From positions 58,801-122,800 of the forward strand of contig CAVVXZ010000024.1 in the NCBI GenBank assembly GCA_963752175.1: a DNA stretch of 64,000 nucleotides. The letters are read 5' to 3'. Positions 1,654 through 51,720 of the stretch are shown here, piece by piece. Made by a program: the position numbers and the translations under genes. Origin of the DNA: an uncultured Acidobacteriaceae bacterium. GTDB taxonomy: Bacteria > Acidobacteriota > Terriglobia > Terriglobales > Acidobacteriaceae. How positions within the stretch are numbered: position 1 is the first letter of the stretch; the number at the start of each line of letters is the position of its first letter. A model generated the notes under the pieces. The model was not told the DNA's origin and made no database searches. It worked only from the letters and a program-made list of their open reading frames with translations.

Positions 1654-3168
1654 ATGAATCGCCGAAGCTTTATTCGCCTCTCGGCCGCCGCTTCTGCCGC
1701 TGTTTTCTACAGACCCGCCAGTTTTGCGGAGACCGACCCCAGCCCGGCGATCCGGCTGACGCTTCGCGCCGACCGGCTCGGCATCAAGATCGGCGAAGAC
1801 TTCACCGGACTGAGCTACGAATCCGCGCAGCTCGGCAATCCCCATTTCTTCTCGGGCGCAAATACCGAACTGGTGGGCTTTATGCGGCGGTTGGGAACGT
1901 CCGGAGTTCTACGGATCGGCGGCAACACCAGCGAGTATTGCTATTGGACTCCGGATCCCACCAAGCAGACGAACCGGCAAAATACAGAAAGCATGCGGAC
2001 CGGCGACAAGGCAAATCCCGTCGCCTTTGGACTCGCGGTCGGTCCCGATACCGGCAAGAAGGCTCCTGCGCCCGTCAATATAACGCCCCAAGCGATCGGC
2101 AATTTACGCGAGTTTCTAGACGCCTGCGGCTGGAAGCTGATCTACGGCCTGAACATGGGCACCGGCACCGCGGAAGACGCCGCGGATGAGGCTGCCCGCG
2201 TGATGGATGCGGCCGGCTCGAAGCTGATCGCATTCCAACTCTGCAACGAACCTGATCTTTTCTTTCGCAACGGAATTCGTAAGGCCGACTACGATTTCAA
2301 ACAGTTTGCCCTCGAATGGCAGCATTTTTTCCAGACGATCCGCGCGCGTCTTCCAAGAGCACCCTTTGCCGGACCGGACACCGCATACAACAACGAGTGG
2401 CTCGTTCCCTTCGCAAAGCAGTTCAAGCATGAGGCTGTGTTTCTTTCGCAACACTATTACGCGGAGGGTCCGCCGACCGACCCCTCCATGACAATTGAGC
2501 GACTGCTCCGGCCAAATCCCAAGCTGCAAGACGAGCTCGAAGGCATGAAGGCCACCATGCAGGAATCGGGCCTGCCTTTCCGGCTGGCGGAAACGAACTC
2601 CTGCTACCAGGGAGGCAAGCAAGGGGTGAGCGACACTTTCGCCTCGGCTCTCTGGGGTGCCGACCTCATGTATCAGCTCGCCACAGCCGGTGGTACGGGC
2701 ATCAACTTTCACGGCGGCGGTTATGGCTGGTACACCCCGATTGCGGGCACGCAGGAAAATGGATTTCTGGCCAGGCCCATTTATTACGGCATGTTGCTGT
2801 TTGCGCAGGCTGGTGCAGGACTGTTAGTAGAAAGCCGACTCGATCATCCGGAACTAGCGCCCCTGCTAACGGCATACGGTCTCCGCAGCAATACAGGAGC
2901 AGTCAAGGTAGCGGCGTTTAACAAGAACCTGGACCGCAGCGTGCGCCTCACCATAGATCCAGGACAGCGAGCAAAGCGCGTAACCGCGCTGCGTCTGCAT
3001 GCTCCGCGAGTGGACGACACCACCGACACGACCTTCGGCGGAGCGCCAGTCGGCGCTGGCGGCGCATGGTCGGCTGCACGCGAAGAAACGCTGCCTCTTG
3101 AAAACGGAGCTGCGGCCCTCGACCTTCCGGCCGCGAGCGCGGCCTTGGTCACGTTCGAAAGCGAATGA
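1654..3168 (+). CDS. glycoside hydrolase family 79 (beta-glucuronidase/heparanase-like), Tat/Sec-exported
   Basis: ORF 1618-3168. The likely start is MNRRSFIRLSAAASAAV (twin-arginine-like signal). Motifs seen: LRIGGNTSEYCYW, CNEPDLF (acid/base Glu context) and AETNSCYQGG (nucleophile Glu context). Confidence 0.7.
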   Translation: MNRRSFIRLSAAASAAVFYRPASFAETDPSPAIRLTLRADRLGIKIGEDFTGLSYESAQLGNPHFFSGANTELVGFMRRLGTSGVLRIGGNTSEYCYWTPDPTKQTNRQNTESMRTGDKANPVAFGLAVGPDTGKKAPAPVNITPQAIGNLREFLDACGWKLIYGLNMGTGTAEDAADEAARVMDAAGSKLIAFQLCNEPDLFFRNGIRKADYDFKQFALEWQHFFQTIRARLPRAPFAGPDTAYNNEWLVPFAKQFKHEAVFLSQHYYAEGPPTDPSMTIERLLRPNPKLQDELEGMKATMQESGLPFRLAETNSCYQGGKQGVSDTFASALWGADLMYQLATAGGTGINFHGGGYGWYTPIAGTQENGFLARPIYYGMLLFAQAGAGLLVESRLDHPELAPLLTAYGLRSNTGAVKVAAFNKNLDRSVRLTIDPGQRAKRVTALRLHAPRVDDTTDTTFGGAPVGAGGAWSAAREETLPLENGAAALDLPAASAALVTFESE

Positions 3169-3301
3169 TGTCACCCTCGTCGTGTTCAGCGGGTTTCGGT
3201 AAATAGACGCATCATATGGCCAACGATTGCAGGGATCCATCGTCAATCAACTGGAATGAGCGAGTTCCCGTCGATGGGTACTCGGCACCTGGAGCAGAAT
3301 C

Positions 3302-4532
3302 ATGAGCGCGACCGTCGCCGTCACTCCCATCGCCGCTGAGACCGCCTCGAAATCCCGCATCGCATCCATCGACCTGATCCGTGGCGCGGTCATGATCCTG
3401 ATGGCCATCGATCACGTGCGCGTCTATTCCGGGATCCCAGCCGGCGGCCCCAGGGCCGGAGTCTTCTTCACTCGCTGGATCACCCACTTCTGCGCGCCCG
3501 CCTTCATCTTCCTGGCCGGCACCAGTATCTTCCTCTACGCCCGCAAGCACGACCATGTGTCACGGTATCTGCTGATCCGGGGCGCGTGGCTCATCCTGCT
3601 CGAATTCACATTTCTGCGCCTCGCCTGGACCTTCAATCTTCGACTTTCGCCATTACGAGATGGCCGGTGTCATCTGGGTGATTGGAATCGGCATGATTCT
3701 GATGGCTGGACTGATAAGACTGCCGCTGGCTGCGGTCGGAACGATTGGCGTGGTCATCATCGGCGCCCACAACCTGATGGATCCACACATGCGCGCACTC
3801 CTGGAAGGCCTCGATCAAAACCCGCTCTCGGGTCTTTGGAAAATCATGTACGTAGGATTCTTCGCCGGGCCGATCCAGTTTGGCTCCGATGGACCCAACC
3901 TGATCGTGCTGTATTCCATCATTCCGTGGATCGGCGTCATGGCGGCGGGTTACGCGTTTGGAAAAATCCTGACGTTCGAGCCCGCGCGCAGAAGGCAGCT
4001 GTGCCTGACGATCGGACTCACTGCCATCGGACTCTTTCTCGTCCTACGCGGATTCAACTGGTACGGAGATCCGCGCCCCTGGCATGCCGCCGTTGCAGGC
4101 CGGAACGGTCAACCGCCAATGCCAAGTTTGTTTGCCTTCCTGAACACTACCAAGTACCCGGCTTCCCTCGATTTTCTTTTGATGACGCTGGGCCCGATCA
4201 TCGCCCTGATCCCCTTACTCGAGAACCTCCGCGGAACCATATCCCGGGCAATTTCCCTCTTCGGGCGTGTTCCATTCTTCTTCTACATGCTTCACATCCC
4301 CCTGATCCACGCGATCGCTCTGGTTGTGTCGAAGGTTCGGCTCGGCTTTGTTAGCCCGTGGCTGTTCGCCAACCACCCCATGGGCAATCCCGAGCCACCC
4401 GACAGCTACATGTGGAGCCTTCCCCTTCTTTACCTGGTCTGGGCAATCACCATCGTGCTGCTCTATTTCGCGTGCCGCTGGTTTGCCGCCCTCAAACTGA
4501 GGAGGAACGACTGGTGGCTCCAATACCTGTAG
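3302..4532 (+). pseudogene. DUF1624 / heparan-alpha-glucosaminide N-acetyltransferase-like (HGSNAT-like) membrane acyltransferase, interrupted by a 1-nt frameshift near 3638
   Basis: ORF 3302-4354 has a good N-terminus (IDLIRGAVMILMAIDHVRVY...FLRLAWTFN) and then degenerates into Arg/Pro-rich nonsense. ORF 3660-4532 in the next frame carries the rest of the family (MAGVIWVIGIGMILMAG...FFFYMLHIPLIH...). Removing the C at 3638 joins them as WTFN-FDFRHYEMAGVIWV. This could be a real pseudogene or an assembly error. Confidence 0.65.
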
Positions 4533-4754: not shown

Positions 4755-5576
4755 ATGCGAGTTAAGTTTTGGGGCGTACGCGGTTCCACGCCCACTCCAC
4801 AGGCCGAGAATCTGCGCTACGGAGGCAACACCTCCTGCGTCGAAGTGCGCGTCGGAGATGAGATCTATATCTTCGACTGCGGCACCGGATTCCGCGTGCT
4901 GGGACACGAACTGAAGCGCGAGTTTGGCGACCGTCCCTTCGCCGCCCACGTTTTCGTTTCACACTTCCATTGGGACCACATCCAGGGCATGCCTTTTTTC
5001 CGCCCGCTCTACGAAAATCCCAATAGCCAGCTCGTCTTTCACTCGTCCAGCCGCACCCGCGGACTCGAGCAGGTGATGGCCGAGCAGATGGCGTCGCCTT
5101 ACTTTCCCGTCAACCTCGATCAGATGACCGGGAAGCGCGACTTTTGCAACATCGACAATGGATGCCTGCCCATGGCCGACGGCACGCGCATCAAGACCGC
5201 TTGGTTGAATCATCCGCAGGGATGCATGGGATTCCGCCTGGAGACCAAAGAAGGTGTAGTGGTTTACGCCACCGACAATGAGCCCGGCGATCCGAACTTC
5301 GATAAGGCAGTGCGCAAGCTCGCCGATGGCGCCGACATCCTTATCTACGATGCGCAGTATCTTCCAGAAGAATACGAAGCACGACGCCGCGGCTGGGGAC
5401 ACAGTCACTGGCGCGAGGCTGTCAATGTGGTCATGGAAAGCGGCGCCAAGGAATTGGTCCTCTACCATCACGACCCCGACCACACCGACTCCGTGATCGA
5501 CACTGTCGTCGCGAATGCCCGCGACTACTATCCCAAAGTGCGGGCCGCCGCCGAAGGCATGGAAATCGAGCTGTAG
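4755..5576 (+). CDS. MBL-fold metallo-hydrolase
   Basis: 273-aa ORF with a VSHFHWDHIQG metal-binding motif and a typical beta-lactamase-fold N-terminus (KFWGVRGSTPTP...GGNTSCV). Confidence 0.8.
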   Translation: MRVKFWGVRGSTPTPQAENLRYGGNTSCVEVRVGDEIYIFDCGTGFRVLGHELKREFGDRPFAAHVFVSHFHWDHIQGMPFFRPLYENPNSQLVFHSSSRTRGLEQVMAEQMASPYFPVNLDQMTGKRDFCNIDNGCLPMADGTRIKTAWLNHPQGCMGFRLETKEGVVVYATDNEPGDPNFDKAVRKLADGADILIYDAQYLPEEYEARRRGWGHSHWREAVNVVMESGAKELVLYHHDPDHTDSVIDTVVANARDYYPKVRAAAEGMEIEL

Positions 5577-5584
5577 CTGCCGGA

Positions 5585-6055
5585 CTATCCCTTTCCTAAG
5601 AATCTTCCGACCAAAGCTGCGCAAGCTTCGACAAATTCCCGCTCTGCGAGATCGAACGTATTGGCGAAGTAGCTCTCGATGTCGAGTTCTGCCGCCAGCT
5701 TTCCTTTCACGAAAATCGGCACCACGACTTCGCTGTTCACCATGGACGACCCCGCAAGATAGCGGGGATCTTTGCTGACATCCTGTACGACTACGGTCTG
5801 CCCGGTGGTGGCGGCCGCGCCGCAGAGTCCGGTGTTGAGCGGAATGCGCACGTTCGGCGTGAAGCTGCCCACGTACGGGCCCACCACCAGAAACCCGGCA
5901 TCCGCAGGATCGATCAGGTAGAACCCCACCCAGTTGTAGCGCGTCATTTTTTCATGCAGACGTTGCGCCATGTGATCCATCAGGGACTCCGCAGTGGCGG
6001 CGCTCTTGGCCGAGTTCCGGAATTCAACCAGAAGTTCTTCGTGCACAGGAGTCAT
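5585..6055 (-). CDS. GAF domain protein (free Met-R-sulfoxide reductase / YebR-like)
   Basis: ORF 5585-6232 trimmed to the internal MTPVHEELL start (cat at 6053-6055). Motifs: YNWVGFYL...LVVGPYVG...IPLNTGLCGAAA...VVVQDV...DPRYLA...SEVVVPI. Confidence 0.75.
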   Translation of the reverse strand: MTPVHEELLVEFRNSAKSAATAESLMDHMAQRLHEKMTRYNWVGFYLIDPADAGFLVVGPYVGSFTPNVRIPLNTGLCGAAATTGQTVVVQDVSKDPRYLAGSSMVNSEVVVPIFVKGKLAAELDIESYFANTFDLAEREFVEACAALVGRFLGKG

Positions 6056-6276
6056 GATTTTGGCTCTTTCATCCTTGCCCTCAGAATATGCCAGCCCCGT
6101 TGGCAAGTCGGGGGTTAATTCGGAAGTTGAACCATCAATGTACCGTCCCGCCAGCTTGCTTCCCGGCCTTCGGCCCTCATATACTCGGAACGTTTGCCCG
6201 CTCCGTGGGAATGCTCTCGGCGCCGGCGGCATTTATCTGCAGATCCCGACCTGCCCTCATTCCGGAGACCACTTCT

Positions 6277-7554
6277 ATGACGACGATAGCGACGCCCCCG
6301 CACGTGGATAAAGAAAGCAATCCCTGGGAATCCCAGCGGGCGCGTTTTGACTTGGCGGCCCAGAAGCTCAACCTTGATGAGGGCTTGTGGCGCGTTCTGC
6401 GCTATCCCAACCGGGAGCTCACCGTCTACATCCCCGTGCAAATGGACGACGGCCACCTCGAAGTCTTCACCGGCTTCCGCGTGCAGCATTCCATCGCGCG
6501 CGGACCGGCTAAGGGGGGCATTCGCTACGCGCCCGACGTCACCCTCGACGAAGTTCGCGCGCTGGCCAGCTGGATGACCTGGAAGTGCGCCGTGGTCAAC
6601 ATTCCCTTCGGCGGCGCCAAGGGCGGCGTGATCTGCGACCCGCACAAAATGTCGATGGGCGAGGTCGAGCGGATGACCCGCCGCTACACCTCGGAGCTGA
6701 TTGAATTCATCGGCCCTGAAAAAGACGTGCCCGCCCCTGACGTCAACACCAACGAACAAATCATGGCATGGATGATGGACACCTACTCCATGCATATGCG
6801 CCAGACGGTTACGGCCGTCGTCACCGGCAAGCCGATCAACATCGGTGGCTCCCGGGGACGCCGCGAAGCCACCGGCCGCGGCGTGATGATCGTGTGCGAT
6901 GAAGCCTGCCAGAAGCTTGGCCTGCCTCGCGAAAGCACACGCGTAATCGTGCAGGGCTTCGGCAATGTCGGCTCCAATGCCGCTCTGCTGATGCATCAGG
7001 CAGGGTACAAGGTGATCGGCATTGGCGAAGTCGGCGGCGGATTGCACAACCAGAACGGGATCGACCTGAAGGCTCTCGTTGACTTCCGCCAGAAGAACGG
7101 CACTATCCATGGATTCCCCGGCGCGGAAAAAGCCGAGACCTCCGATTTACTCGTCGAAGACTGCGAAATTCTGATTCCCGCAGCCACCGAGAACGTGATC
7201 ACCAGCCGCAATGCCGACCGCGTCAAGTGCCGCGTCTTGGCCGAGGGCGCGAACGGCCCAACAACCTCTGCCGCAGACGATATCCTCACGGACAAAGGCG
7301 TCTTCGTCATTCCCGACATCCTGGCCAACGCCGGCGGTGTCACCACTTCGTACTTCGAGTGGGTACAGGACCGCCAGGGCTACTTCTGGAAAGAATCCGT
7401 TGTCAACGAACAGCTCGACGCCATCATGAAGTCGTCGTTCGAAGATGTCGTCCGTTACGCCGAGACTCACCACGTCAACAATCGTATCGCCGCTTATATG
7501 CTGGCGATCGACCGCGTGGCCTACACCATCCGCCAGCGCGGCATTTATGCATAG
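6277..7554 (+). CDS. gdhA: NAD(P)-specific glutamate dehydrogenase
   Basis: ORF 6088-7554 trimmed to [10 protein letters not shown] (ATG at 6277). Motifs: [24 protein letters not shown]. Confidence 0.9.
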
Positions 7555-15038: not shown

Positions 15039-15785
15039 ATGGCGTGGTACGCGTACTGTCTTACCGAGCATCAAACCCTTCCCAATGGAACCCGCACTCG
15101 CCGCCCTTTCCTGCTAGAGGGCGTTCAAGGAGTGAACGGCGCTGCGGTTCTGAGCTATCCCAGTGGTGAATTCGCCGTCATTGTCAGCGAATACGACCAC
15201 TCGATAGGTGAGCTAGACCACAAATCAGCAATTGATCACGCTCGTGTAGTCAGCAACTGCTTTCGCAACTCCACCGTCCTTCCTTTCAAATTCGGCACGA
15301 TTTTCGACAGCGATGACGCCCTTCGCCAGGCCGTCCGGGTCAACCGGCGGGCTTTTGGCCTGAGCGTTGCCAAGCTGCGCGGAAAGTCCGAAATGCACAT
15401 CAAACTGGTCGTTCGCGATGGCTCTCTCCGCGAGGCCATGATCGACATCGAACTGCCCGACACGGTCGGTGGCGACTACCTCTCGAAGCTGAAGGTGAAG
15501 GCCTCCCGTGAGCGTGAGCGCCAGACCAAGGCGCGCGCCCTGTCGGTCCAGGTCCACAAGCTGTTCAACCCGCTCGAGGAAGAAGTCAGCTGCAAAAAGG
15601 TCGCACCCGAGGGCATGTTGATCGACATTGCCCACCTGATCGACTCCAAAAGCGTGGAAAAGTACCAGAACCGCTACACCACCGCCGCCAAGCAGTTGAA
15701 GAACTGCGAAGTGGCAATCAGCGGTCCGTGGCCCCCGTACCACTTCCTGCCGGGCAAGCTGCGCACCGTGGCAGGCAACAGCTAA
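15039..15785 (+). CDS. GvpL/GvpF family protein (gas-vesicle-protein homologue, orphan)
   Basis: 248 aa. AWYAYCL N-terminus, FAVIVSEY, HARVVSNCFRNSTVLPFKFGTIF, KSEMHIKL, a coiled central region and a C-terminal ISGPWPPYHF match the GvpL/F layout from memory. No HMM was run. Confidence 0.6.
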   Translation: MAWYAYCLTEHQTLPNGTRTRRPFLLEGVQGVNGAAVLSYPSGEFAVIVSEYDHSIGELDHKSAIDHARVVSNCFRNSTVLPFKFGTIFDSDDALRQAVRVNRRAFGLSVAKLRGKSEMHIKLVVRDGSLREAMIDIELPDTVGGDYLSKLKVKASRERERQTKARALSVQVHKLFNPLEEEVSCKKVAPEGMLIDIAHLIDSKSVEKYQNRYTTAAKQLKNCEVAISGPWPPYHFLPGKLRTVAGNS

Positions 15786-21013: not shown

Positions 21014-23206
21014 CTACGCAGATTTCAACTGAAACGGCAGCTTCCGCAACCGCTGCCCCGACGCCGCAAAAATCGCATTCGCCACCGCCGGAGCAGCCGG
21101 CGGCAACCCCGGTTCCCCCATTCCGCCCGGGGCCTCGTGATTGATCACCAAATGCACCTCGATCGGCGGAGCTTCGCTGATCCGGATCGGATCGTACCCA
21201 TCAAAATTCGTCTGTTCGACCGCCCCGTTCTTGATCGTGATCTCATTCTTCAGCGCGGCGCTCAACCCGTAGATGATCGCTCCCTCCGTTTGCGAGCGCA
21301 CCGACTCCGGATTCACGATCTGCCCGCAATCCACCGCGGCGACGATGCGGTCGATCTTGAAGTCGTTTCCCTTCACCGTGACCTCTGCCACCTCGGCGAA
21401 GTAGCTGCCAAACGAACAGAACGCTGCAATCCCGCGGCCCCGGCCCTTCGGCAGCGGTGCGCCCCAGCCTGCCTTCTCGGCAGCGAGTTCCAACACCCCG
21501 CGCAGCCGCGCCGGATCCGGATCATCCTCGCTTTTTGCCTTCCAGTTCGCCGGCTTGACCAGCAGCGACTTGCGAAACTGCATCGGATCCTGCCCGGCCG
21601 CCGCCGCCAGTTCATCGATGAAGCTCTCCACCACAAATCCGTTGAATGAATTCTCCACCGACCGCCACCATGCGCGCGGCACCGCACTCGCCACCGGATT
21701 AAACTCCAGGCGCACATTCGAAATCGCGTACGGCATTTCCTTCGCGCCGCCAACTTCCTGGCTCTCCGGCGCGGCCTTCGGATCCCAATACCCCCGAATC
21801 GATGTCGACGCCATTGTGTGAAACCACGCCGCCGGACGTCCCTTCGCATCCACCGCGCCTTGCATCCGATGACACGTCGCAGGACGATAAAAATCATGCG
21901 TCATATCGTCCTCCCGCGTCCACACCAGTTGCACAGGCTTGCCCACGATCTTCGCAATCTGCGCCACCTCCGCGGGAAAGTCCGCCATGTAGCGCCGACC
22001 GAATCCTCCGCCCATCAGCGTGGTATGCACCACCACCTTGTCCGGCTTGATCCCCAACACCTGCGCCACCGTTCCCTGCACCCAGTCCGGCGATTGCGTC
22101 GGCGCCCACACTTCGGCCTCGCCTCCACGCACGTGCGCCGTGATGTTCATCGGCTCCATCGTCGCGTGCGCCAGCAGCGGCATTTCGTACACCGCTTCTA
22201 TTTTCTTCGCTCCGTTCGCCAAGACCGCATCCACATCGCCGTCATTACGCACACGCTTGCCCGGCTTCGCCGCCGCCTCGCGCAACGCCGCACGCATCCC
22301 CTCGCTCGACTCCGACGAAGCCGCACCTGGTTCCCATGTGATATCGAGCGCATCACGCCCTTTCATCGCGGCCCACGTGGAGTCCGCGACGACCACCACA
22401 CCTCCGGCAGTGAACTTGTCCGCGCCGAATGCAGGAATCTCAAACACATCGCGTACTCCCGCCACACCCTTCGCCTTCGTGGCATCGAAGTGCGCCGGCT
22501 TGCCCCCAAACGTCGGACACCGCGCCACCACCGCAAACACCATCTCGGGTACTCGCACATCAATCCCAAATTGCGCGCTGCCATTCACCTTCGACGGCAC
22601 ATCCACCCGCGCCGTCGGATGCCCGATCAATTCAAACTTCGCTTCATCCTTGAGTTGCACCTTCTCCTGATCCGGCAGCGGCAGTTTCTCCGCCGCCTCC
22701 ACCAGTTCTCCGTACCCGGCCTTGCGCGCCGATTTCGCGTGCAGCACCGTTCCCTTCTTCGCCTCGCACTCGGACGCCAGCACGTTCCACTTCGCTGCCG
22801 CCGCGGCAATCATCAAATCTCGCACGGTCGCTCCCGCCCGACGCAGAGGCGTGAAATTCTCCATCGTGCTCCCGCTTCCGCCCGTGCCCAGGTGCGCATA
22901 AAGATCCGGCCGCGTCTCGGCCTGCTCTACTTTCACCGAAGCGAAATCAACCTCGGCCTCTTCCGCCAGGACCATCGCCAGCCCAGTCTTGATTCCCTGC
23001 CCCATCTCCGACTTCGCCACGATCAGCGAAATCTGCCCGTCTGGCTTCACGTGCACGTAAGCGACAAACGGATTCGGCGCCTTCTGCTTCGCTCCCGGGT
23101 CCGACTCCTGCGCTCGAACCAGCGATCCCGAGTACCGCACGCCAATCAGCACTCCCGCCCCGGCGACCACTCCCGTCACCACGAATTGTCTGCGGCTGAT
23201 GGTCAT
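21014..23206 (-). CDS. molybdopterin-binding large subunit of an IorB/aldehyde-oxidoreductase-type hydroxylase, Tat-exported
   Basis: ORF 21014-23317 trimmed to [22 protein letters not shown] (Tat signal, cat at 23204-23206). Xanthine dehydrogenase family a/b-hammerhead and MoCo-binding regions ([14 protein letters not shown]). Paralogue of 30849-32966. Confidence 0.85.
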
Positions 23207-23208
23207 GG

Positions 23209-23712
23209 CTACGCTCCTTTCCCCGCGCCGGAACTGCTCGCACCACTTCCGCTCGCGCCAGATCCACTCGCACGTTGAATGGCCTGGCGAATCCGCTGAT
23301 ACATGCCGCACCGGCACAAATTCCCCGCCATCGCAGACTCAATCTGCTGGTCGCTCGGATGCGGAGTTTTCGCCAGCAACGCCGCTGCCGACATTATCTG
23401 CCCAGGCTGGCAGTATCCGCATTGCGGCACCTGCTCGGCGATCCACGCCACCTGCACAGGATGCGAGTTGCCCGCCGACAGCCCCTCGATCGTCGTAATC
23501 CTCTTCGCGCCCACAGATGACACCGCAGTCTGGCACGCGCGCACCGCCTCGCCGTCCAGATGCACCGTGCACGCTCCGCACAGCCCCACCCCACAGCCGT
23601 ACTTTGTGCCGGTCAAATTAATTCTGTCGCGCAGAACCCACAATAGAGGGGTGTCAGGTGCGATCTCAATATCGTGCGGACTATTGTTGATCACCAGATG
23701 AATCGCAGCCAT
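23209..23712 (-). CDS. (2Fe-2S)-binding small subunit (IorA-like)
   Basis: ORF trimmed to [10 protein letters not shown]. Motifs [23 protein letters not shown] and NLCRCGMY. Unusual Gly/Ser/Ala C-terminal tail [20 protein letters not shown] 2-nt gap to the large-subunit start. Confidence 0.9.
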
Positions 23713-30384: not shown

Positions 30385-30852
30385 ATGGCCGATCTCACAC
30401 TCCGCGTCAACGGCAGTGAAAAGAAAGTCAGCGTCTCTCCTGAAACTCCACTCCTTTGGGTTCTTCGCGACACCCTGGAACTCACCGGGACCAAGTTCGG
30501 ATGCGGCGCTGGATTATGCGGCGCCTGCACCGTTCACGTCGACGGCAACCCGATCCGCTCCTGCTCAACTCCCGTCTCTCAAGTGGCAGGCAAAAGCGTG
30601 CTGACGATTGAAGGCCTCGGAGCCAACGGACTTCACGTGCTGCAGCAGGCCTGGATCGCCGAAGAAGTTCCGCAATGCGGCTACTGCCAGACAGGGCAAA
30701 TCATGTCCGCCGCAGCGTTGCTGGCGAAAACGCCGAACCCGACCGACGAACAGATCACCGCGGCCTTGAACGGCAACCTCTGCCGCTGCGGAACCTACGA
30801 GCGCATTCGCAAAGCCGTGCATCGCGCCGCCGGCAACGGAGGCTCGCAATGA
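30385..30852 (+). CDS. (2Fe-2S)-binding small subunit (IorA-like), second copy
   Basis: Motifs [23 protein letters not shown] and [12 protein letters not shown] overlap with the following gene. Confidence 0.9.
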
Positions 30853-32966
30853 GCCCACTTTCCCGCCGTGAATTCGTCGCCGCCGGAGTCGCCGCCGGCG
30901 CTGGTCTCGTGATCGGATTCTACCTGCCGCACAAATCCGGCTCACAAGAATCGTTCTTTTCGCCGAATGCCTATCTGCGCATCACCCCCGACAACAAGGT
31001 CACCATCGTGGTCGCACGCTCCGAGATGGGCCAAGGCGTGCGCACCGCGCTGCCCATGATCCTCGCCGAAGAGCTCGAGGCCGACTGGAAGCAGATCGAA
31101 ATCGAGCAAGCCGGAGCCAGCACGCTCTACGGCGATCAGACCACCGGAGGCAGCGCCAGCATCCGCACCACATGGGATCCCATGCGCAAAGCCGGAGCCT
31201 CCGCGCGTGAGATGCTGATCTCCGCAGCCGCGTTGACTTGGAACGTTCCGCGCTCGACTTGCGCCGCTGAGAACAGCCGCATCAAGCACGCTGCCACGAA
31301 TCGCAGTCTGAGCTATGGAGAACTCGTCAGCAAAGCCGCGACGCTGCCGATTCCGACTGACGTCACGTTGAAGCAGAGCAAAGACTACAAGATCGTCGGG
31401 CGGCGTCTGCCGCGCGTCGATTCGCCCGCCAAGGTCAAGGGCGAAGCGGTTTTTGGCATCGACTTCCGCGTGCCTGACATGAAGTTCGCGGTGCTTTCGC
31501 GCTGTCCCACGATCGGCGGAAAAGTGTCCGCATTCGACGACAAGGAATCGAAGAAAATCCCCGGCGTGAATTACGTCGGCAAAGTCGGCGATTCGGCCGT
31601 AGCCGTCGTCGCCGACAGCGTTTGGAGCGCGATGGAAGGCCGCCGCGTCCTCAACGTCACGTGGGACGATGGCCCAAACAAAGATCTGACCACCACTGCG
31701 GTGATGGCGTCGCTGAAGCAGGCTGCATCCAAAACACCGGCAAACTTGTTCCTGACTGGTGATCCCACCAAAACAGCGGGACGGAAGATCTCCGCCGAGT
31801 ACACACTCCCCTTCATGGCGCACGCTCCCATGGAACCCGGCAATTGCACCGCGCACTATCAGGGCACGAAATGCGAATTGTGGGCGCCGACGCAGGTTCC
31901 GCAGGATTGTCGCGACTCGGTCGCAACCGCCATCGGCCTCGATCCTGATCAAGTCAAAGTGAATGTCACCCTGATGGGCGGAGGCTTTGGCCGCCGCCTC
32001 GAGCACGACTATGCCGTCGAAGCCGCGCTGGTATCGAAGGCGATCAGCGCTCCGGTGAAAGTGATCTGGACGCGCGAAGATGACATGCGCTTCTCCACGT
32101 ACCGTCCGGCGAGCCTGCATCAGCTCAGCGCCACGCTCGATGTATCGGGAATGCCTGTCGCTCTGACACATCGCCTCATCGCTGGCTCCATCAGCGGACA
32201 AAAGGGTCAGCCGACCCCGAATGGAGTCGATCCCGATCTGCCCGATGAAGCGGGCCCCGTGTACGGAATCCCGAACTATTCCGTCGACTACATGATGGCC
32301 GAGACGCCCGTGCCTTTGGGCTGGATGCGCTCGGTCTACGCCCTGCAAGCGGCGTTTGCGCTCGAGAGTTTCATCGACGAACTCGCGGTCGCAGCCGGCA
32401 AAGACCCGTTGCAGTATCGTCTGAAGCTGCTGGCTAAAGATTCTGACCTCACCTATTTCACGACCACATGGCACACGGCCCGCATGCGCGGAGTGCTGCA
32501 ACTCGCCGCCGAGAAATCGGGATGGGACAAGCCTCTTGCCGCCGGCCACTATCGCGGCGTCGCCTGCTTCGGCTGCTTCGCTTCGTACATGGCGGAAGTC
32601 GTCGAGATCACCATGGAGAACGATCAGCCGCGCGTGCATCGCGTGGTGGCGGTGGTCGACTGCGGACAGGTCGTGAATCCCGCCATTCTCGAGCAGCAGA
32701 TTCAGGGTGGAATCGTGTACGGCCTCGGCAATGCGCTGCGCGCCAAGATCACGATCGAGAAAGGCCGCGTCGTGCAGGGTAACTTCGACGACTACGCCCC
32801 GCTGCGCATGGAAGAAACGCCCGCAGTCGAGGTCTACGCCGTTCCGAGCGTGGAAGTCCCAACCGGAATCGGAGAGCCCTCGGTTCCGCCGGTCGCGCCT
32901 GCGTTATGCAACGCAATCTACGCGGCCACGAAGAAGCGAATCAGAGCGCTGCCAATCCTCGGCTAG
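30849..32966 (+). CDS. molybdopterin-binding large subunit (IorB-like), Tat-exported, second copy
   Basis: ORF 30675-32966 trimmed to [30 protein letters not shown] and GGGFGRR motifs. Collinear with 21014-23206. Confidence 0.85.
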
Positions 32967-48951: not shown

Positions 48952-48984
48952 ACGCAAATAACAAAGGCCGCTGCGAGAGCGGCC
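48952..48984 (-). terminator. intrinsic terminator after the MoaD/ThiS-like gene
   Basis: The minus strand reads GGCCGCTCTCGCAGCGGCC followed by TTTGTTATTTG, about 40 nt past the stop at 49026. Confidence 0.7.
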
Positions 48985-49025
48985 TGAATCGTTATGTTCG
49001 AAACAGATTGTTGGTGCAACGCGGG

Positions 49026-49307
49026 CTAGTTCGCGCCACCCGCGATCGAGGGCACGAGCAGGACTTCGTCGCCTTCCTGGAAGGCGTAGGTTTGTCCGCC
49101 GAGGAAGCGGATGTCTTCTTCGTTCACATAAATGTTCAAGAAGCGGCGGACCTGCCCTTTGTCATCGCGCAAGTGTGGCTTCAAATCGGGGAACTTTTCG
49201 TCGAGCACGGAGAAGAGTTCTCCGAGATTCGAGGCGGCGCAGGTGATCGATCCCACGCCTTCAGTATGGCGCCGGAGTGCAGTCGGGATTTGTACTGTGA
49301 TCGGCAT
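49026..49307 (-). CDS. MoaD/ThiS-family beta-grasp sulfur-carrier-like protein
   Basis: 93 aa. MPITVQIPTALRRHTEG...NIYVNEEDIRF...GDEVLLVPSIAGGAN, with a di-Gly two residues from the C-terminus. The start lies 1 nt after the upstream stop (TAAcATG). Confidence 0.75.
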   Translation of the reverse strand: MPITVQIPTALRRHTEGVGSITCAASNLGELFSVLDEKFPDLKPHLRDDKGQVRRFLNIYVNEEDIRFLGGQTYAFQEGDEVLLVPSIAGGAN

Positions 49308-49308
49308 G

Positions 49309-50604
49309 TTACGCTCCCACGCCCGTGGCCTCGGCGATAACTCCAGGAATCTCGGAGAGGCTCAGCGTCTGCTGCAGGTAGTGTTCGAACTCCGTCAGCT
49401 TCGGCGCGATCGGCCGCTCCGTCTCGTATACGCCAGCGAGCACATCGGTCGTCTTCAGGCCGTTGCCGGTAATGCAGAGCACGGTCGTCTCTTCCGGTAG
49501 GATCCGGTCTTGACGATACAGCTTGCCCGCTGTCCCGACGGTCACGCCGCCAGCAGTCTCAGTGAAGATGCCTTCCGTTTCCGCCAGCAGCTTGATCGAA
49601 TTGATCACTTCCGGATCGCTGACGTCTTCGCTCCATCCGCCGCTGTTCTTGATGACTTTGATCGCATAGTGTCCGTCAGCAGGATTGCCGATGGCCAGCG
49701 AGCGCGCGATGGTCGTCGGCTTCTGCGGCTCGATCTCAGAGCTTCCTGTCTTCACCGCAGTCGAGATTGGAGAGCAGCCTGTCGCCTGCGCTCCGAAGAA
49801 CTTCACTTCCTTCGCCTCAACCAGGCCGAGCTTGATCAGTTCGTCAAACGCCTTCTTGATCTTCACAATCAGCGATCCGCCCGCCATGGGGCAGACCACG
49901 TTGTCCGGCAGCCGCCATCCCAGTTGCTCGGCAATTTCGAATCCGACCGTCTTCGATCCCTCGGCATAATAAGGACGCAGGTTGACGTTGACGAATCCCC
50001 AGCGATGCTCGTCGGCGATCTGCGAGCAAAGACGGTTGACCTGGTCATAGTTCCCGGCGATGCGCACGACTTTCGCGCCGAAGACGTTGGTCCCAAGAAT
50101 CTTCGCAGGCTCGAGGTCGGAAGGAATAAAGATCCACGCTTTCAGTCCTTCGCGGGCAGCGTGGGCGGCGACGGCGTTGGCCAGGTTTCCAGTCGACGAA
50201 CACGAAACGGTGTCGAAGCCGAACGCCTTCGCCTGCGAGATCGCCACCGCGACGACGCGGTCTTTGAAGCTCAGCGTGGGCAGGCAAACTGCGTCGTTCT
50301 TAAGGTAGACATTCCCCGCGGCGGCGGCCGTTCCCGTCAACTGTTTCGCCAGGCGTGGAGCCTGGAACAGTGGAGTGAAGCCGACCGGCAGCCGCGGTTC
50401 ATAGCCTGGGGGGAGGGGCAACAGTTCGGAGTAGCGCCACATGTTCGGCGGCCGCTGGGCGATCTGCTCCCGACTGATGGATCCTCGGAGGGCGTCGTAG
50501 TCGTAAGCAACTTCCAGGGGGGAGAAACAATCGTCGCAGATGGAGCGGGGCTGGTTTCCCCATGTCCGTCCGCATTCGCGGCACCGCAGTTCGTAGTGAG
50601 ACAT
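49309..50604 (-). CDS. threonine-synthase-family (fold-type II PLP) enzyme with N-terminal Cys4 ribbon; candidate carrier-dependent homocysteine synthase
   Basis: 431 aa. CRECG...CDDC ribbon, the PLP-lysine context PTLSFKDRV, and SSTGNLANA. The family call is confident. The specific function is inferred from the riboswitch and the neighbouring gene. Confidence 0.8.
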   Translation of the reverse strand: MSHYELRCRECGRTWGNQPRSICDDCFSPLEVAYDYDALRGSISREQIAQRPPNMWRYSELLPLPPGYEPRLPVGFTPLFQAPRLAKQLTGTAAAAGNVYLKNDAVCLPTLSFKDRVVAVAISQAKAFGFDTVSCSSTGNLANAVAAHAAREGLKAWIFIPSDLEPAKILGTNVFGAKVVRIAGNYDQVNRLCSQIADEHRWGFVNVNLRPYYAEGSKTVGFEIAEQLGWRLPDNVVCPMAGGSLIVKIKKAFDELIKLGLVEAKEVKFFGAQATGCSPISTAVKTGSSEIEPQKPTTIARSLAIGNPADGHYAIKVIKNSGGWSEDVSDPEVINSIKLLAETEGIFTETAGGVTVGTAGKLYRQDRILPEETTVLCITGNGLKTTDVLAGVYETERPIAPKLTEFEHYLQQTLSLSEIPGVIAEATGVGA

Positions 50605-50645
50605 GTTGCTACTCGCTTTCCTATTCCGAAAACTCGGAATCAGTT

Positions 50646-50684
50646 GTCATCCTGAGCGAGACGGTTTTTGTCTCGCGAAGGACC
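50646..50684. repeat. family B element, degenerate copy in the 5' UTR of the ThrC-like gene
   Basis: GTCATCCTGAGCGAGACGGTTTTTGTCTCGCGAAGGACC. Confidence 0.65.
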
Positions 50685-50794
50685 TGGGCGCGCCGCGCGA
50701 TCAATTTCGCGTTCTTTGCGAAATTGCAAAATCGTGCGTTCGGCGCGCTTCCCTACTAGCGAGTAGCCGGGGACGAGCCTCGAAAAAGTGGCCT

Positions 50795-50836
50795 AAAAAG
50801 CAAATGGCCTCTTTTTCCAGGAAAAGGAAAAGAGGC
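50795..50836 (-). terminator. riboswitch expression-platform terminator
   Basis: The minus strand reads GCCTCTTTTCCTTTTCCTGGAAAAAGAGGC followed by CATTTGCTTTTT. Confidence 0.8.
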
Positions 50837-50874
50837 TATCGGAATGCGGGACTAAATATTGCGCGCGTTCCGAA

Positions 50875-50986
50875 TCCCATGTTCCCTGTTTCCAGGAGAG
50901 AGTTGGCACCAAGCACCCGGGATATATGATCCCGGATCGGTTGCCGTGGCGTCACAGGGCTCGTCCCTCAGCCACTCTGCATGAAA
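50875..50986 (-). promoter_or_regulatory. SAM-I (S-box) riboswitch aptamer
   Basis: Minus-strand RNA: UUUCAUGCAGAGUGGCUGAGGGACGAGCCCUGUGACGCCACGGCAACCGAUCCGGGAUCAUAUAUCCCGGGUGCUUGGUGCCAACUCUCUCCUGGAAACAGGGAACAUGGGA. Conserved blocks AGAG, GGC.GAGGGA, GCCC..UGA.GCC, GGCAACC and GGUGCCAA are present. P3 (CCGGGAU/AUCCCGG) and P4 (UCCUG/CAGGGA) hairpins form, and P1 pairs UUUCAUG with CAUGGGA. Confidence 0.85.
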
Positions 50987-51112
50987 TTCAGGTCCACTTC
51001 CCAATCAAAATTGAAAAATGAACTTGTTCCGACGATAGTACAAAATGCCGGGAGAGGCGTCAAGAGGGAACTGGCTCACTGATTCTGGCAGTGATCCCAG
51101 CCGCGGAGCGGC

Positions 51113-51203: not shown

Positions 51204-51720
51204 ATGCCTTCGGGACTGACACGCTTTCACCAGACTGGTCAAAGTCATTTCGTCACATTCTGCTATTACCACCGCCGTAGTTTGCTTACCACTGACGAAA
51301 ACCGCCGAATCTTCGAGTCAGCCTTGGAGCGCGTGCGGCGACGCTTCAGACTTCAGGTTTACGGCTACGTAGTCATGCCGGAGCACGTTCACCTCCTGCT
51401 CAGCGAACCACAACAGGATACGTTGGCCGAGGCGCTGAAGTCGTTGAAGCAAGGAGTATCGCGGCATTTGATTGGCGAGGCGGCGCATTTCTGGCAAGAG
51501 GGGTACTACGATCTCAACATCCGAAATTACCCGCAGTTTGTGGAAAAGCTGCGCTAGATTCATCGTAATCCGGTGAAGGCAGGGGTTGTGCGAACGTCCG
51601 GAGGACTGGGAGTCGAGCAGCTTTCGCCACTACGCAAATGGCTGTAAGAGACGGGTAGAGATCGAGTCCGAATGGACGGCGCGAAAAAGCGAGCGGCAGG
51701 CAGACTCTGTCCAGCGGTAG
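51204..51720 (+). pseudogene. REP-associated tyrosine transposase (RAYT, IS200/Y1 family), inactivated by a TAG and a frameshift
   Basis: ORF 51204-51557 has the HUH motif PEHVHLLL and ends KLR-TAG. Directly after the TAG comes IHRNPVKAG (normally Y-IHRNPV). At about 51589 the homology continues in the +1 frame: CERPEDWESSSFRHYANG... to the stop at 51718-51720. Confidence 0.8.

Follow-up and report, generated by a model that had tools for sequence, protein, structure and literature searches.

A probable metM-metO operon for homocysteine synthesis under a predicted SAM-I OFF riboswitch in an uncultured acidobacterium

The minus strand of a 64,000-nucleotide stretch of DNA from an uncultured Acidobacteriaceae bacterium (GenBank assembly GCA_963752175.1, contig CAVVXZ010000024.1, positions 58,801 to 122,800; hereafter the window) carries a SAM-I riboswitch, an RNA class that responds to S-adenosylmethionine (SAM), followed by a gene for a protein of the threonine synthase (ThrC) family and a gene for a small beta-grasp protein. 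Judging from the sequence and its genomic context, these two genes most probably constitute a metM-metO operon for methionine biosynthesis under the control of a SAM-I OFF riboswitch, and the larger protein is probably not the housekeeping ThrC. The larger protein is predicted to be a homocysteine synthase of the MetM type, and it would therefore not be the housekeeping threonine synthase that annotation models declare it to be. The operon appears to be an acidobacterial member of a known MetM/MetO kind, for which SAM-riboswitch control is likewise already known, and it presents no new mechanism.

The precedent comes from Streptomyces albulus, where the ThrC-like enzyme MetM and the carrier protein MetO are reported to convert O-phosphohomoserine to homocysteine (Hasebe et al. 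2024, Appl Environ Microbiol 90:e01247-24). The sequence-only reading that preceded this analysis had named such a pair from Streptomyces, in agreement with that source as cited. A pathway composed of MetO, Mec, MoeZ, and MetM has since been listed, with a note that MetM often carries a wrong annotation as threonine synthase (GapMind 2026), and the S. albulus metM gene is reported to have a SAM riboswitch upstream (mSystems 2025 paper). The window and the S. albulus system share a ThrC-homologous enzyme dependent on pyridoxal phosphate (PLP), an adjacent carrier of the ThiS/MoaD type, a SAM riboswitch, and the misannotation as threonine synthase. They differ in that the window belongs to the phylum Acidobacteriota, its carrier has a tail of Ala-Asn after Gly-Gly, and neither an E1 nor a JAB peptidase gene is found nearby.

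Two other systems use related logic. In the CysM-CysO-Mec-MoeZ system of Mycobacterium tuberculosis (PDB 3dwg/3dwm), a PLP enzyme likewise takes sulfur from a protein thiocarboxylate. However, CysM is built on the CysK fold and its product is cysteine, formed from O-phosphoserine, whereas the window enzyme combines the ThrC fold with a Cys4 ribbon and has a genomic context suggestive of O-phosphohomoserine as substrate. Thiocarboxylate-dependent homocysteine synthesis is reportedly also carried out by the HcyS/HcyD/HcyF/MetY system of Wolinella succinogenes. There, the carrier has a C-terminal extension that is cut off by a metalloprotease, which resembles the tail of the window carrier, but the PLP enzyme is MetY, a protein with the O-acetylhomoserine sulfhydrylase fold and not a homologue of ThrC.

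When the whole window was scanned with Rfam covariance models, the sole match was to the SAM-I model RF00162, with 68.1 bits (gathering score 44.4; E 9.1e-14), untruncated over model positions 1 to 108 of 108. This significant, full-length match bears out the SAM-I riboswitch claimed in the sequence-only reading, and all the conserved SAM-I blocks quoted there are present in the sequence. The helices P1 to P4, which the same reading held could be drawn, are recovered by folding and by comparison: the minimum free energy (MFE) structure of the aptamer alone is the P1-P4 four-way junction (-46.7 kcal/mol), and when 18 homologous aptamers drawn from several phyla are aligned, 12 of the 26 predicted pairs show compensatory double changes. 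The hairpin and U-run that had been described after the aptamer were also found. The core stem of this terminator, GCCUCUUUUCC/GGAAAAAGAGGC, starts at position 50836 and extends to a hairpin of 48 nt (50847-50800; -16.1 kcal/mol) with UUUUU immediately 3′ (50799-50795). Terminators of the GCCUCUUUUCC type, with compensatory changes in their stems, recur in many homologous leaders. About 45 nt upstream of the aptamer lies a candidate sigma-70-like promoter, TTGACG-17 nt-TACTAT with a TG 5′ of the -10 element, and the blocks TTGAC and TGTAC(T/C)AT are retained in an alignment of four related acidobacterial leaders.

The expression platform is consistent with two alternative structures that exclude one another. 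The unconstrained MFE fold of the leader (-74.9 kcal/mol) contains an antiterminator, in which the terminator's 5′ arm (50835-50820) is base-paired to the 3′ half of P4 together with the 3′ strand of P1 (50893-50877). When formation of the aptamer is enforced, the leader folds as aptamer plus terminator at -73.6 kcal/mol, which is nearly isoenergetic with the antiterminator fold. The leader thus has, in these models, the layout of a classic S-box OFF switch, and a response to SAM is predicted. A crude terminator scan found no terminator in the leaders of an Acidobacteriaceae/Granulicella-like subgroup of related loci (L024, L025, L027, L031, L033, L034, and L042; L numbers denote individual loci), and translational control may be possible in these leaders.

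A further line of evidence is the conserved company of the enzyme gene. We compared the 80 closest loci, obtained by scanning one genome per GTDB species with a diverse alignment as the query. These loci come from Acidobacteriota, Chloroflexota, Nitrospinota, Nitrospirota, Cyanobacteria, Verrucomicrobiota, Planctomycetota, Delta- and Zetaproteobacteria, and others, and their neighboring genes were assigned by NCBIfam and Pfam. In 69 of the 80, the gene immediately after metM is a metO homologue, and in 41, metM is immediately preceded by a SAM-I riboswitch (RF00162) on its own strand. Among these SAM-I-linked loci are 32 from Acidobacteriota and nine from elsewhere (Chloroflexota, Verrucomicrobiota, Planctomycetota, Delta- and Zetaproteobacteria, and one unclassified bacterium), so that at least six phyla are represented in all. 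No SAM-I riboswitch precedes any cyanobacterial clade member among the 80 loci, which fits a published remark on Microcystis, whose homologue is 51.6% identical to MetM and has an adjacent metO-like gene without a riboswitch (mSystems 2025 paper).

The window carrier conforms to this pattern. Its gene starts 1 nt past the stop codon of the enzyme gene, and the 93-residue beta-grasp product ends in SIAGGAN, with the Gly-Gly at residues 90-91 followed by AN; the sequence-only reading had likewise noted the ending AGGAN and the 1-nt gap. It matches Pfam ThiS at 42.4 bits, and its closest relative of solved structure is M. tuberculosis CysO (3dwg_C, E 7.9e-20), followed by a ThiS/MoaD family protein (PDB entry 4n6e). 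The residues after Gly-Gly vary among related MetO proteins (AE, RR, SR, AS, C, CC, and others), and the cyanobacterial proteins have none. In a subgroup of Acidobacteriaceae, MetO carries a Cys-rich extension of about 30 residues past the Gly-Gly (...CCSYCGQEECxCGD), as seen in L024 (5217-5621) and also in L027, L031, L034, L035, and L036; Pfam and NCBIfam recognize only the ThiS domain of these proteins.

In other phyla, genes of the predicted pathway occur as neighbors of the pair. A ThiF/MoeB E1 gene stands beside the metM/metO pair in nine loci. A deltaproteobacterial locus (L062, 3797-9014) contains a SAM-I riboswitch, metM, a metO::NIL gene, two CysK/M-like genes, a Prok-JAB peptidase gene, and a gene for a MoeB/MoeZ-like E1, and by these sequence assignments it carries the whole predicted system in one row. 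In a metagenome-assembled genome (MAG) of Limnocylindrales, Chloroflexota (L022), the SAM-I riboswitch and metM are followed by a metO::thrB fusion (open reading frame 5270-6583; TIGR00191, 215 bits), ask, and asd. Nitrospirota loci (L058, 3968-9206; L064; L075) have, in order, metM, metO, a canonical thrC (TIGR00260, 328 bits), a gene for HomK (TIGR02535 "proposed homoserine kinase", 567 bits), and ask, and these operons place both ThrC-fold paralogues side by side without a SAM riboswitch. A further locus (L081) has a NirA/sulfite-reductase-like gene as a neighbor. The thrB fusion, HomK, ask, asd, and MetY among the fusions and neighbors are suggestive of homoserine chemistry.

The enzyme itself is a ThrC relative of a distinct kind. 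The open reading frame of 431 codons encodes a type II PLP enzyme of the ThrC fold (Pfam PALP, 215 bits) with the invariant motif SFKDR, which holds the PLP lysine K114. The Cys4 ribbon that had been noticed in the sequence-only reading is present at the N terminus as CxxC-x11-CxxC (C8, C11, C23, and C26), and its cysteines are kept in 76 to 79 of the 80 clade members. The closest PDB structures are canonical ThrC proteins (E 1e-46 to 1e-39; identity 32-36%), and a search by sequence found no structure of the MetM type in the PDB (best match ThrC, 1e-46). The 32-36% identity agrees with the 33% reported between B. subtilis ThrC and MetM (2026 preprint). Canonical ThrC (TIGR00260; PDB 1uim, 2zsj, 6cgq, and 2d1f) has the same fold, the SFKDR motif, and the same presumed substrate, O-phosphohomoserine, but the window enzyme differs from it in its low identity, its separate clade, its additional Cys4 ribbon, and the replacements T to L, S to N, N to R, and R to Y.

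These replacements coincide with the phylogenetic division. In neighbor-joining trees, from a rough distance analysis with 100 bootstraps, the window protein is nested well within the metO-linked clade, and canonical ThrC sequences, including the Nitrospirota paralogues, stand apart; the MetM-like clade that includes the Nonomuraea protein described below has a bootstrap value of 85/100, and canonical ThrC has 98/100. The canonical ThrC sequences that the clade excludes are PDB 1uim and 2zsj and three Nitrospirota paralogues. At four positions, all 80 clade sequences carry L141, N208, R210, and Y213 (window numbering) and all five canonical sequences carry T, S, N, and R, respectively, which corresponds to T88L, S155N, N157R, and R160Y in Thermus thermophilus numbering. 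These positions may line the phosphate pocket of T. thermophilus ThrC, but a literature search on the roles of T88, S155, and R160 in that enzyme gave no source, and we attach no mechanism to the replacements.

A link toward the Streptomyces enzyme is provided by Nonomuraea gerenzanensis, the actinomycete comparator, which was drawn from a plasmid collection (PLSDB). No Streptomyces locus is among the 80 closest loci, and no Streptomyces metM was found in the plasmid collection. The layout in Nonomuraea is identical to that of the window, with a SAM-I riboswitch (68.7 bits), metM, and metO; the MetM-like protein has 51.6% identity to the window enzyme and the same signature motifs, MetO is 36% identical and ends in AGG, and a separate canonical ThrC has 60.5% identity to that of T. 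thermophilus. The source record, NZ_LT559118.1 (L084), is entered as "Nonomuraea gerenzanensis plasmid I" but is a chromosome of 11.85 Mb, with almost no annotation (10 features); the SAM-I-metM-metO group is at 11.81 Mb and the canonical thrC at 2.50 Mb.

The proposal of the sequence-only reading, a MetM/MetO-like route under SAM feedback, is thus supported by the separate clade, by the presence of metO in 69 loci, and by SAM-I in 41. Its requirement that the 431-residue protein fall outside canonical ThrC in a phylogeny agrees with the trees, and the acidobacterium-like origin it had suggested is upheld by the relatives at 87-93% identity. Such relatives abound in metagenomes of soil and peat, as well as in MAGs named Candidatus Sulfotelmatobacter or Acidobacteriaceae.

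From this context and the published Streptomyces system, we infer the following series of events. Without SAM, the computed folds suggest that the 3′ part of the aptamer would sequester the terminator's 5′ arm by base pairing and that transcription would read through. Once the aptamer is folded, the terminator hairpin and its U5 run are predicted to form about 25-80 nt downstream, such that high SAM would terminate transcription and switch the operon off. The C-terminal Ala-Asn of MetO would be trimmed by an unlinked JAB/Mec-type peptidase to expose Gly-Gly, and an unlinked E1 of the MoeZ/MoeB type would adenylate MetO and turn it into the thiocarboxylate MetO-COSH. MetM would then produce homocysteine by gamma-replacement, with O-phospho-L-homoserine and MetO-COSH as its substrates. 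The E1, the JAB peptidase, and the other pathway partners are assumed to be encoded elsewhere in the genome.

Several observations weigh against this assignment, and some of them favor other explanations. Genes for an E1, a JAB peptidase, ThrB/HomK, or other methionine enzymes were found neither in the window (Pfam, larger open reading frames) nor within ±10 kb of the gene on the source contig. The case for orthology to S. albulus MetM runs through the Nonomuraea protein as an intermediate and through shared architecture, and this sequence-based link is indirect. In addition, metO is not adjacent in 11 of the 80 loci, and the carrier may therefore not be obligatory throughout the clade. This last point favors the possibility that the enzyme is a direct sulfhydrylase that forms homocysteine from O-phosphohomoserine and free sulfide, with MetO dispensable or serving another acceptor. 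The exceptional loci include SAM-I-controlled metM genes followed by a gene for a MetY-like O-acetylhomoserine sulfhydrylase (L044 and L046) or by thrB (L030 and L040), and CysM and related PLP enzymes accept sulfide as well. Nevertheless, we regard a direct sulfhydrylase as improbable, given that metO of the window follows metM at a distance of 1 nt and is retained in most loci, and that genes for an E1 and a JAB peptidase are grouped with it and metM in other phyla.

A second alternative is that the enzyme is a genuine threonine synthase that happens to be SAM-regulated, with a small protein unrelated to catalysis. It passes the TIGR00260 thrC equivalog at 260.6 bits (cut-off 167.1), and its named relatives at JGI and NCBI are always called threonine synthase, precisely the annotation that the sequence-only reading had expected to be wrong. 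Moreover, in vitro the Microcystis clade member is reported to act as a threonine deaminase and to form threonine weakly, with no clear function as MetM in vivo (mSystems 2025 paper). The co-resident true ThrC of Nitrospirota also passes TIGR00260 (328.5 bits), and the model therefore fails to separate MetM-like proteins from ThrC. A genuine threonine synthase is highly improbable: the enzyme stands outside the canonical clade with ThrC-invariant residues replaced, canonical thrC paralogues reside together with metM in Nitrospirota operons and in Nonomuraea, and a SAM OFF switch would starve the cell of threonine when methionine is plentiful, opposite to the known logic of the pathway. No second thrC-like gene was found in the 64-kb window. 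Equally hard to credit is a cysteine synthase like CysM/CysO, acting on O-phosphoserine and the carrier thiocarboxylate: CysO is the closest solved relative of the carrier, CysK/M-like genes adjoin the pair in several loci, and some cysteine genes are also under S-box riboswitches, but the enzyme has the ThrC and not the CysK/M fold and scores weakly with cysKM models, the CysK/M genes are separate from metM where they occur, and the thrB fusion, HomK, ask, asd, and MetY point to homoserine chemistry.

The features of the predicted metM-metO operon are collected in Table 1.

Table 1. Features of the predicted metM-metO operon, in window coordinates.
Feature	Position	Strand	Basis
Candidate sigma-70-like promoter	51035..51063	-	Consensus scan
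SAM-I (S-box) aptamer, helices P1-P4	50874..50987	-	RF00162, fold, covariation
Predicted antiterminator alternative	50820..50893	-	Unconstrained fold of leader
Predicted intrinsic terminator (hairpin plus U5)	50795..50847	-	Folding
Inverted repeat, GCUACUCGCU (50767-50758) / AGCGAGUAGC (50617-50608)	50608..50767	-	Leader alignment
metM-like gene, 431 aa, predicted MetO-thiocarboxylate-dependent homocysteine synthase	49309..50604	-	PALP, clade, motifs
metO-like gene, 93 aa, beta-grasp carrier of ThiS/MoaD/CysO type	49026..49307	-	Pfam ThiS, CysO match
Terminator-like hairpin after metO, operon end	48965..48985	-	8-bp stem with 6 GC pairs, then TTGTTATTTG

The leader contains one further element, a conserved inverted repeat of 10 nt between the terminator and the metM start, whose 3′ end is 4 nt before the ATG. 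In L032 its arms fold into a tight hairpin whose loop is AAAG. Unrelated inserts enlarge the loop in L005, L006, and the window, the last of which has some 125-140 nt more than L004. The evidence consists of aligned close relatives together with L032; an automated search for start-proximal helices across loci was unreliable because start codons are mis-assigned in many of them. The predicted hairpin may be a second, start-proximal element of control or stability.

The two genes form a bicistron that stands by itself, flanked by a divergent Y1-transposase gene and a gene for a TPR protein. The former (51204-51557, plus strand) encodes a 117-residue Y1_Tnp protein, IS200/RAYT-like, is divergent from the riboswitch promoter, and is also present on identical metagenome contigs. 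Elsewhere in the window are a GvpL/GvpF gas-vesicle homologue (15039-15785, plus strand; 158 bits) and two large molybdopterin-binding subunits of the xanthine-dehydrogenase type (21014-23317, minus strand; 30675-32966, plus strand), all of them unrelated to the operon. Among the compared loci, an Acidobacteriota MAG without SAM-I (L080) has a borderline SAM_alpha match (RF00521; 2737-2810; 37.5 bits against a gathering score of 36) located 1.2 kb upstream of metM, where it precedes an open reading frame for a 256-residue short-chain-dehydrogenase-like protein (3125-3895). Two Nostoc loci have a match to the cyanobacterial heterocyst sRNA RF02596 just 3′ of metO (L067, 5815-5870; L079, 6329-6384), and L037 has a match to a group II intron domain (497-724).

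A wider proposal can be offered only tentatively, and taken as a whole we consider it rather unlikely. In Sulfotelmatobacter-like Acidobacteriota, SAM-repressed MetM-MetO might be the principal or only route to homocysteine, needing an unlinked JAB peptidase for a variable two-residue pro-tail (GG-AN here), with the start-codon hairpin adding translational or stability control, and the clade might hold undescribed carriers, namely MetO with a Cys-rich tail, MetO::ThrB, and MetO::NIL.

The present assignment matters for the correction of annotation and for the breadth over which the route is distributed; it brings no new mechanism. Among the proteins called "threonine synthase" in Acidobacteriota and other phyla, thousands probably make homocysteine instead, a systematic error that skews metabolic reconstructions and predictions of auxotrophy for abundant, mostly uncultured soil bacteria. 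The methionine route through O-phosphohomoserine and a protein thiocarboxylate appears, on the support of SAM-I riboswitches and synteny in at least six phyla, to reach well beyond Streptomyces.

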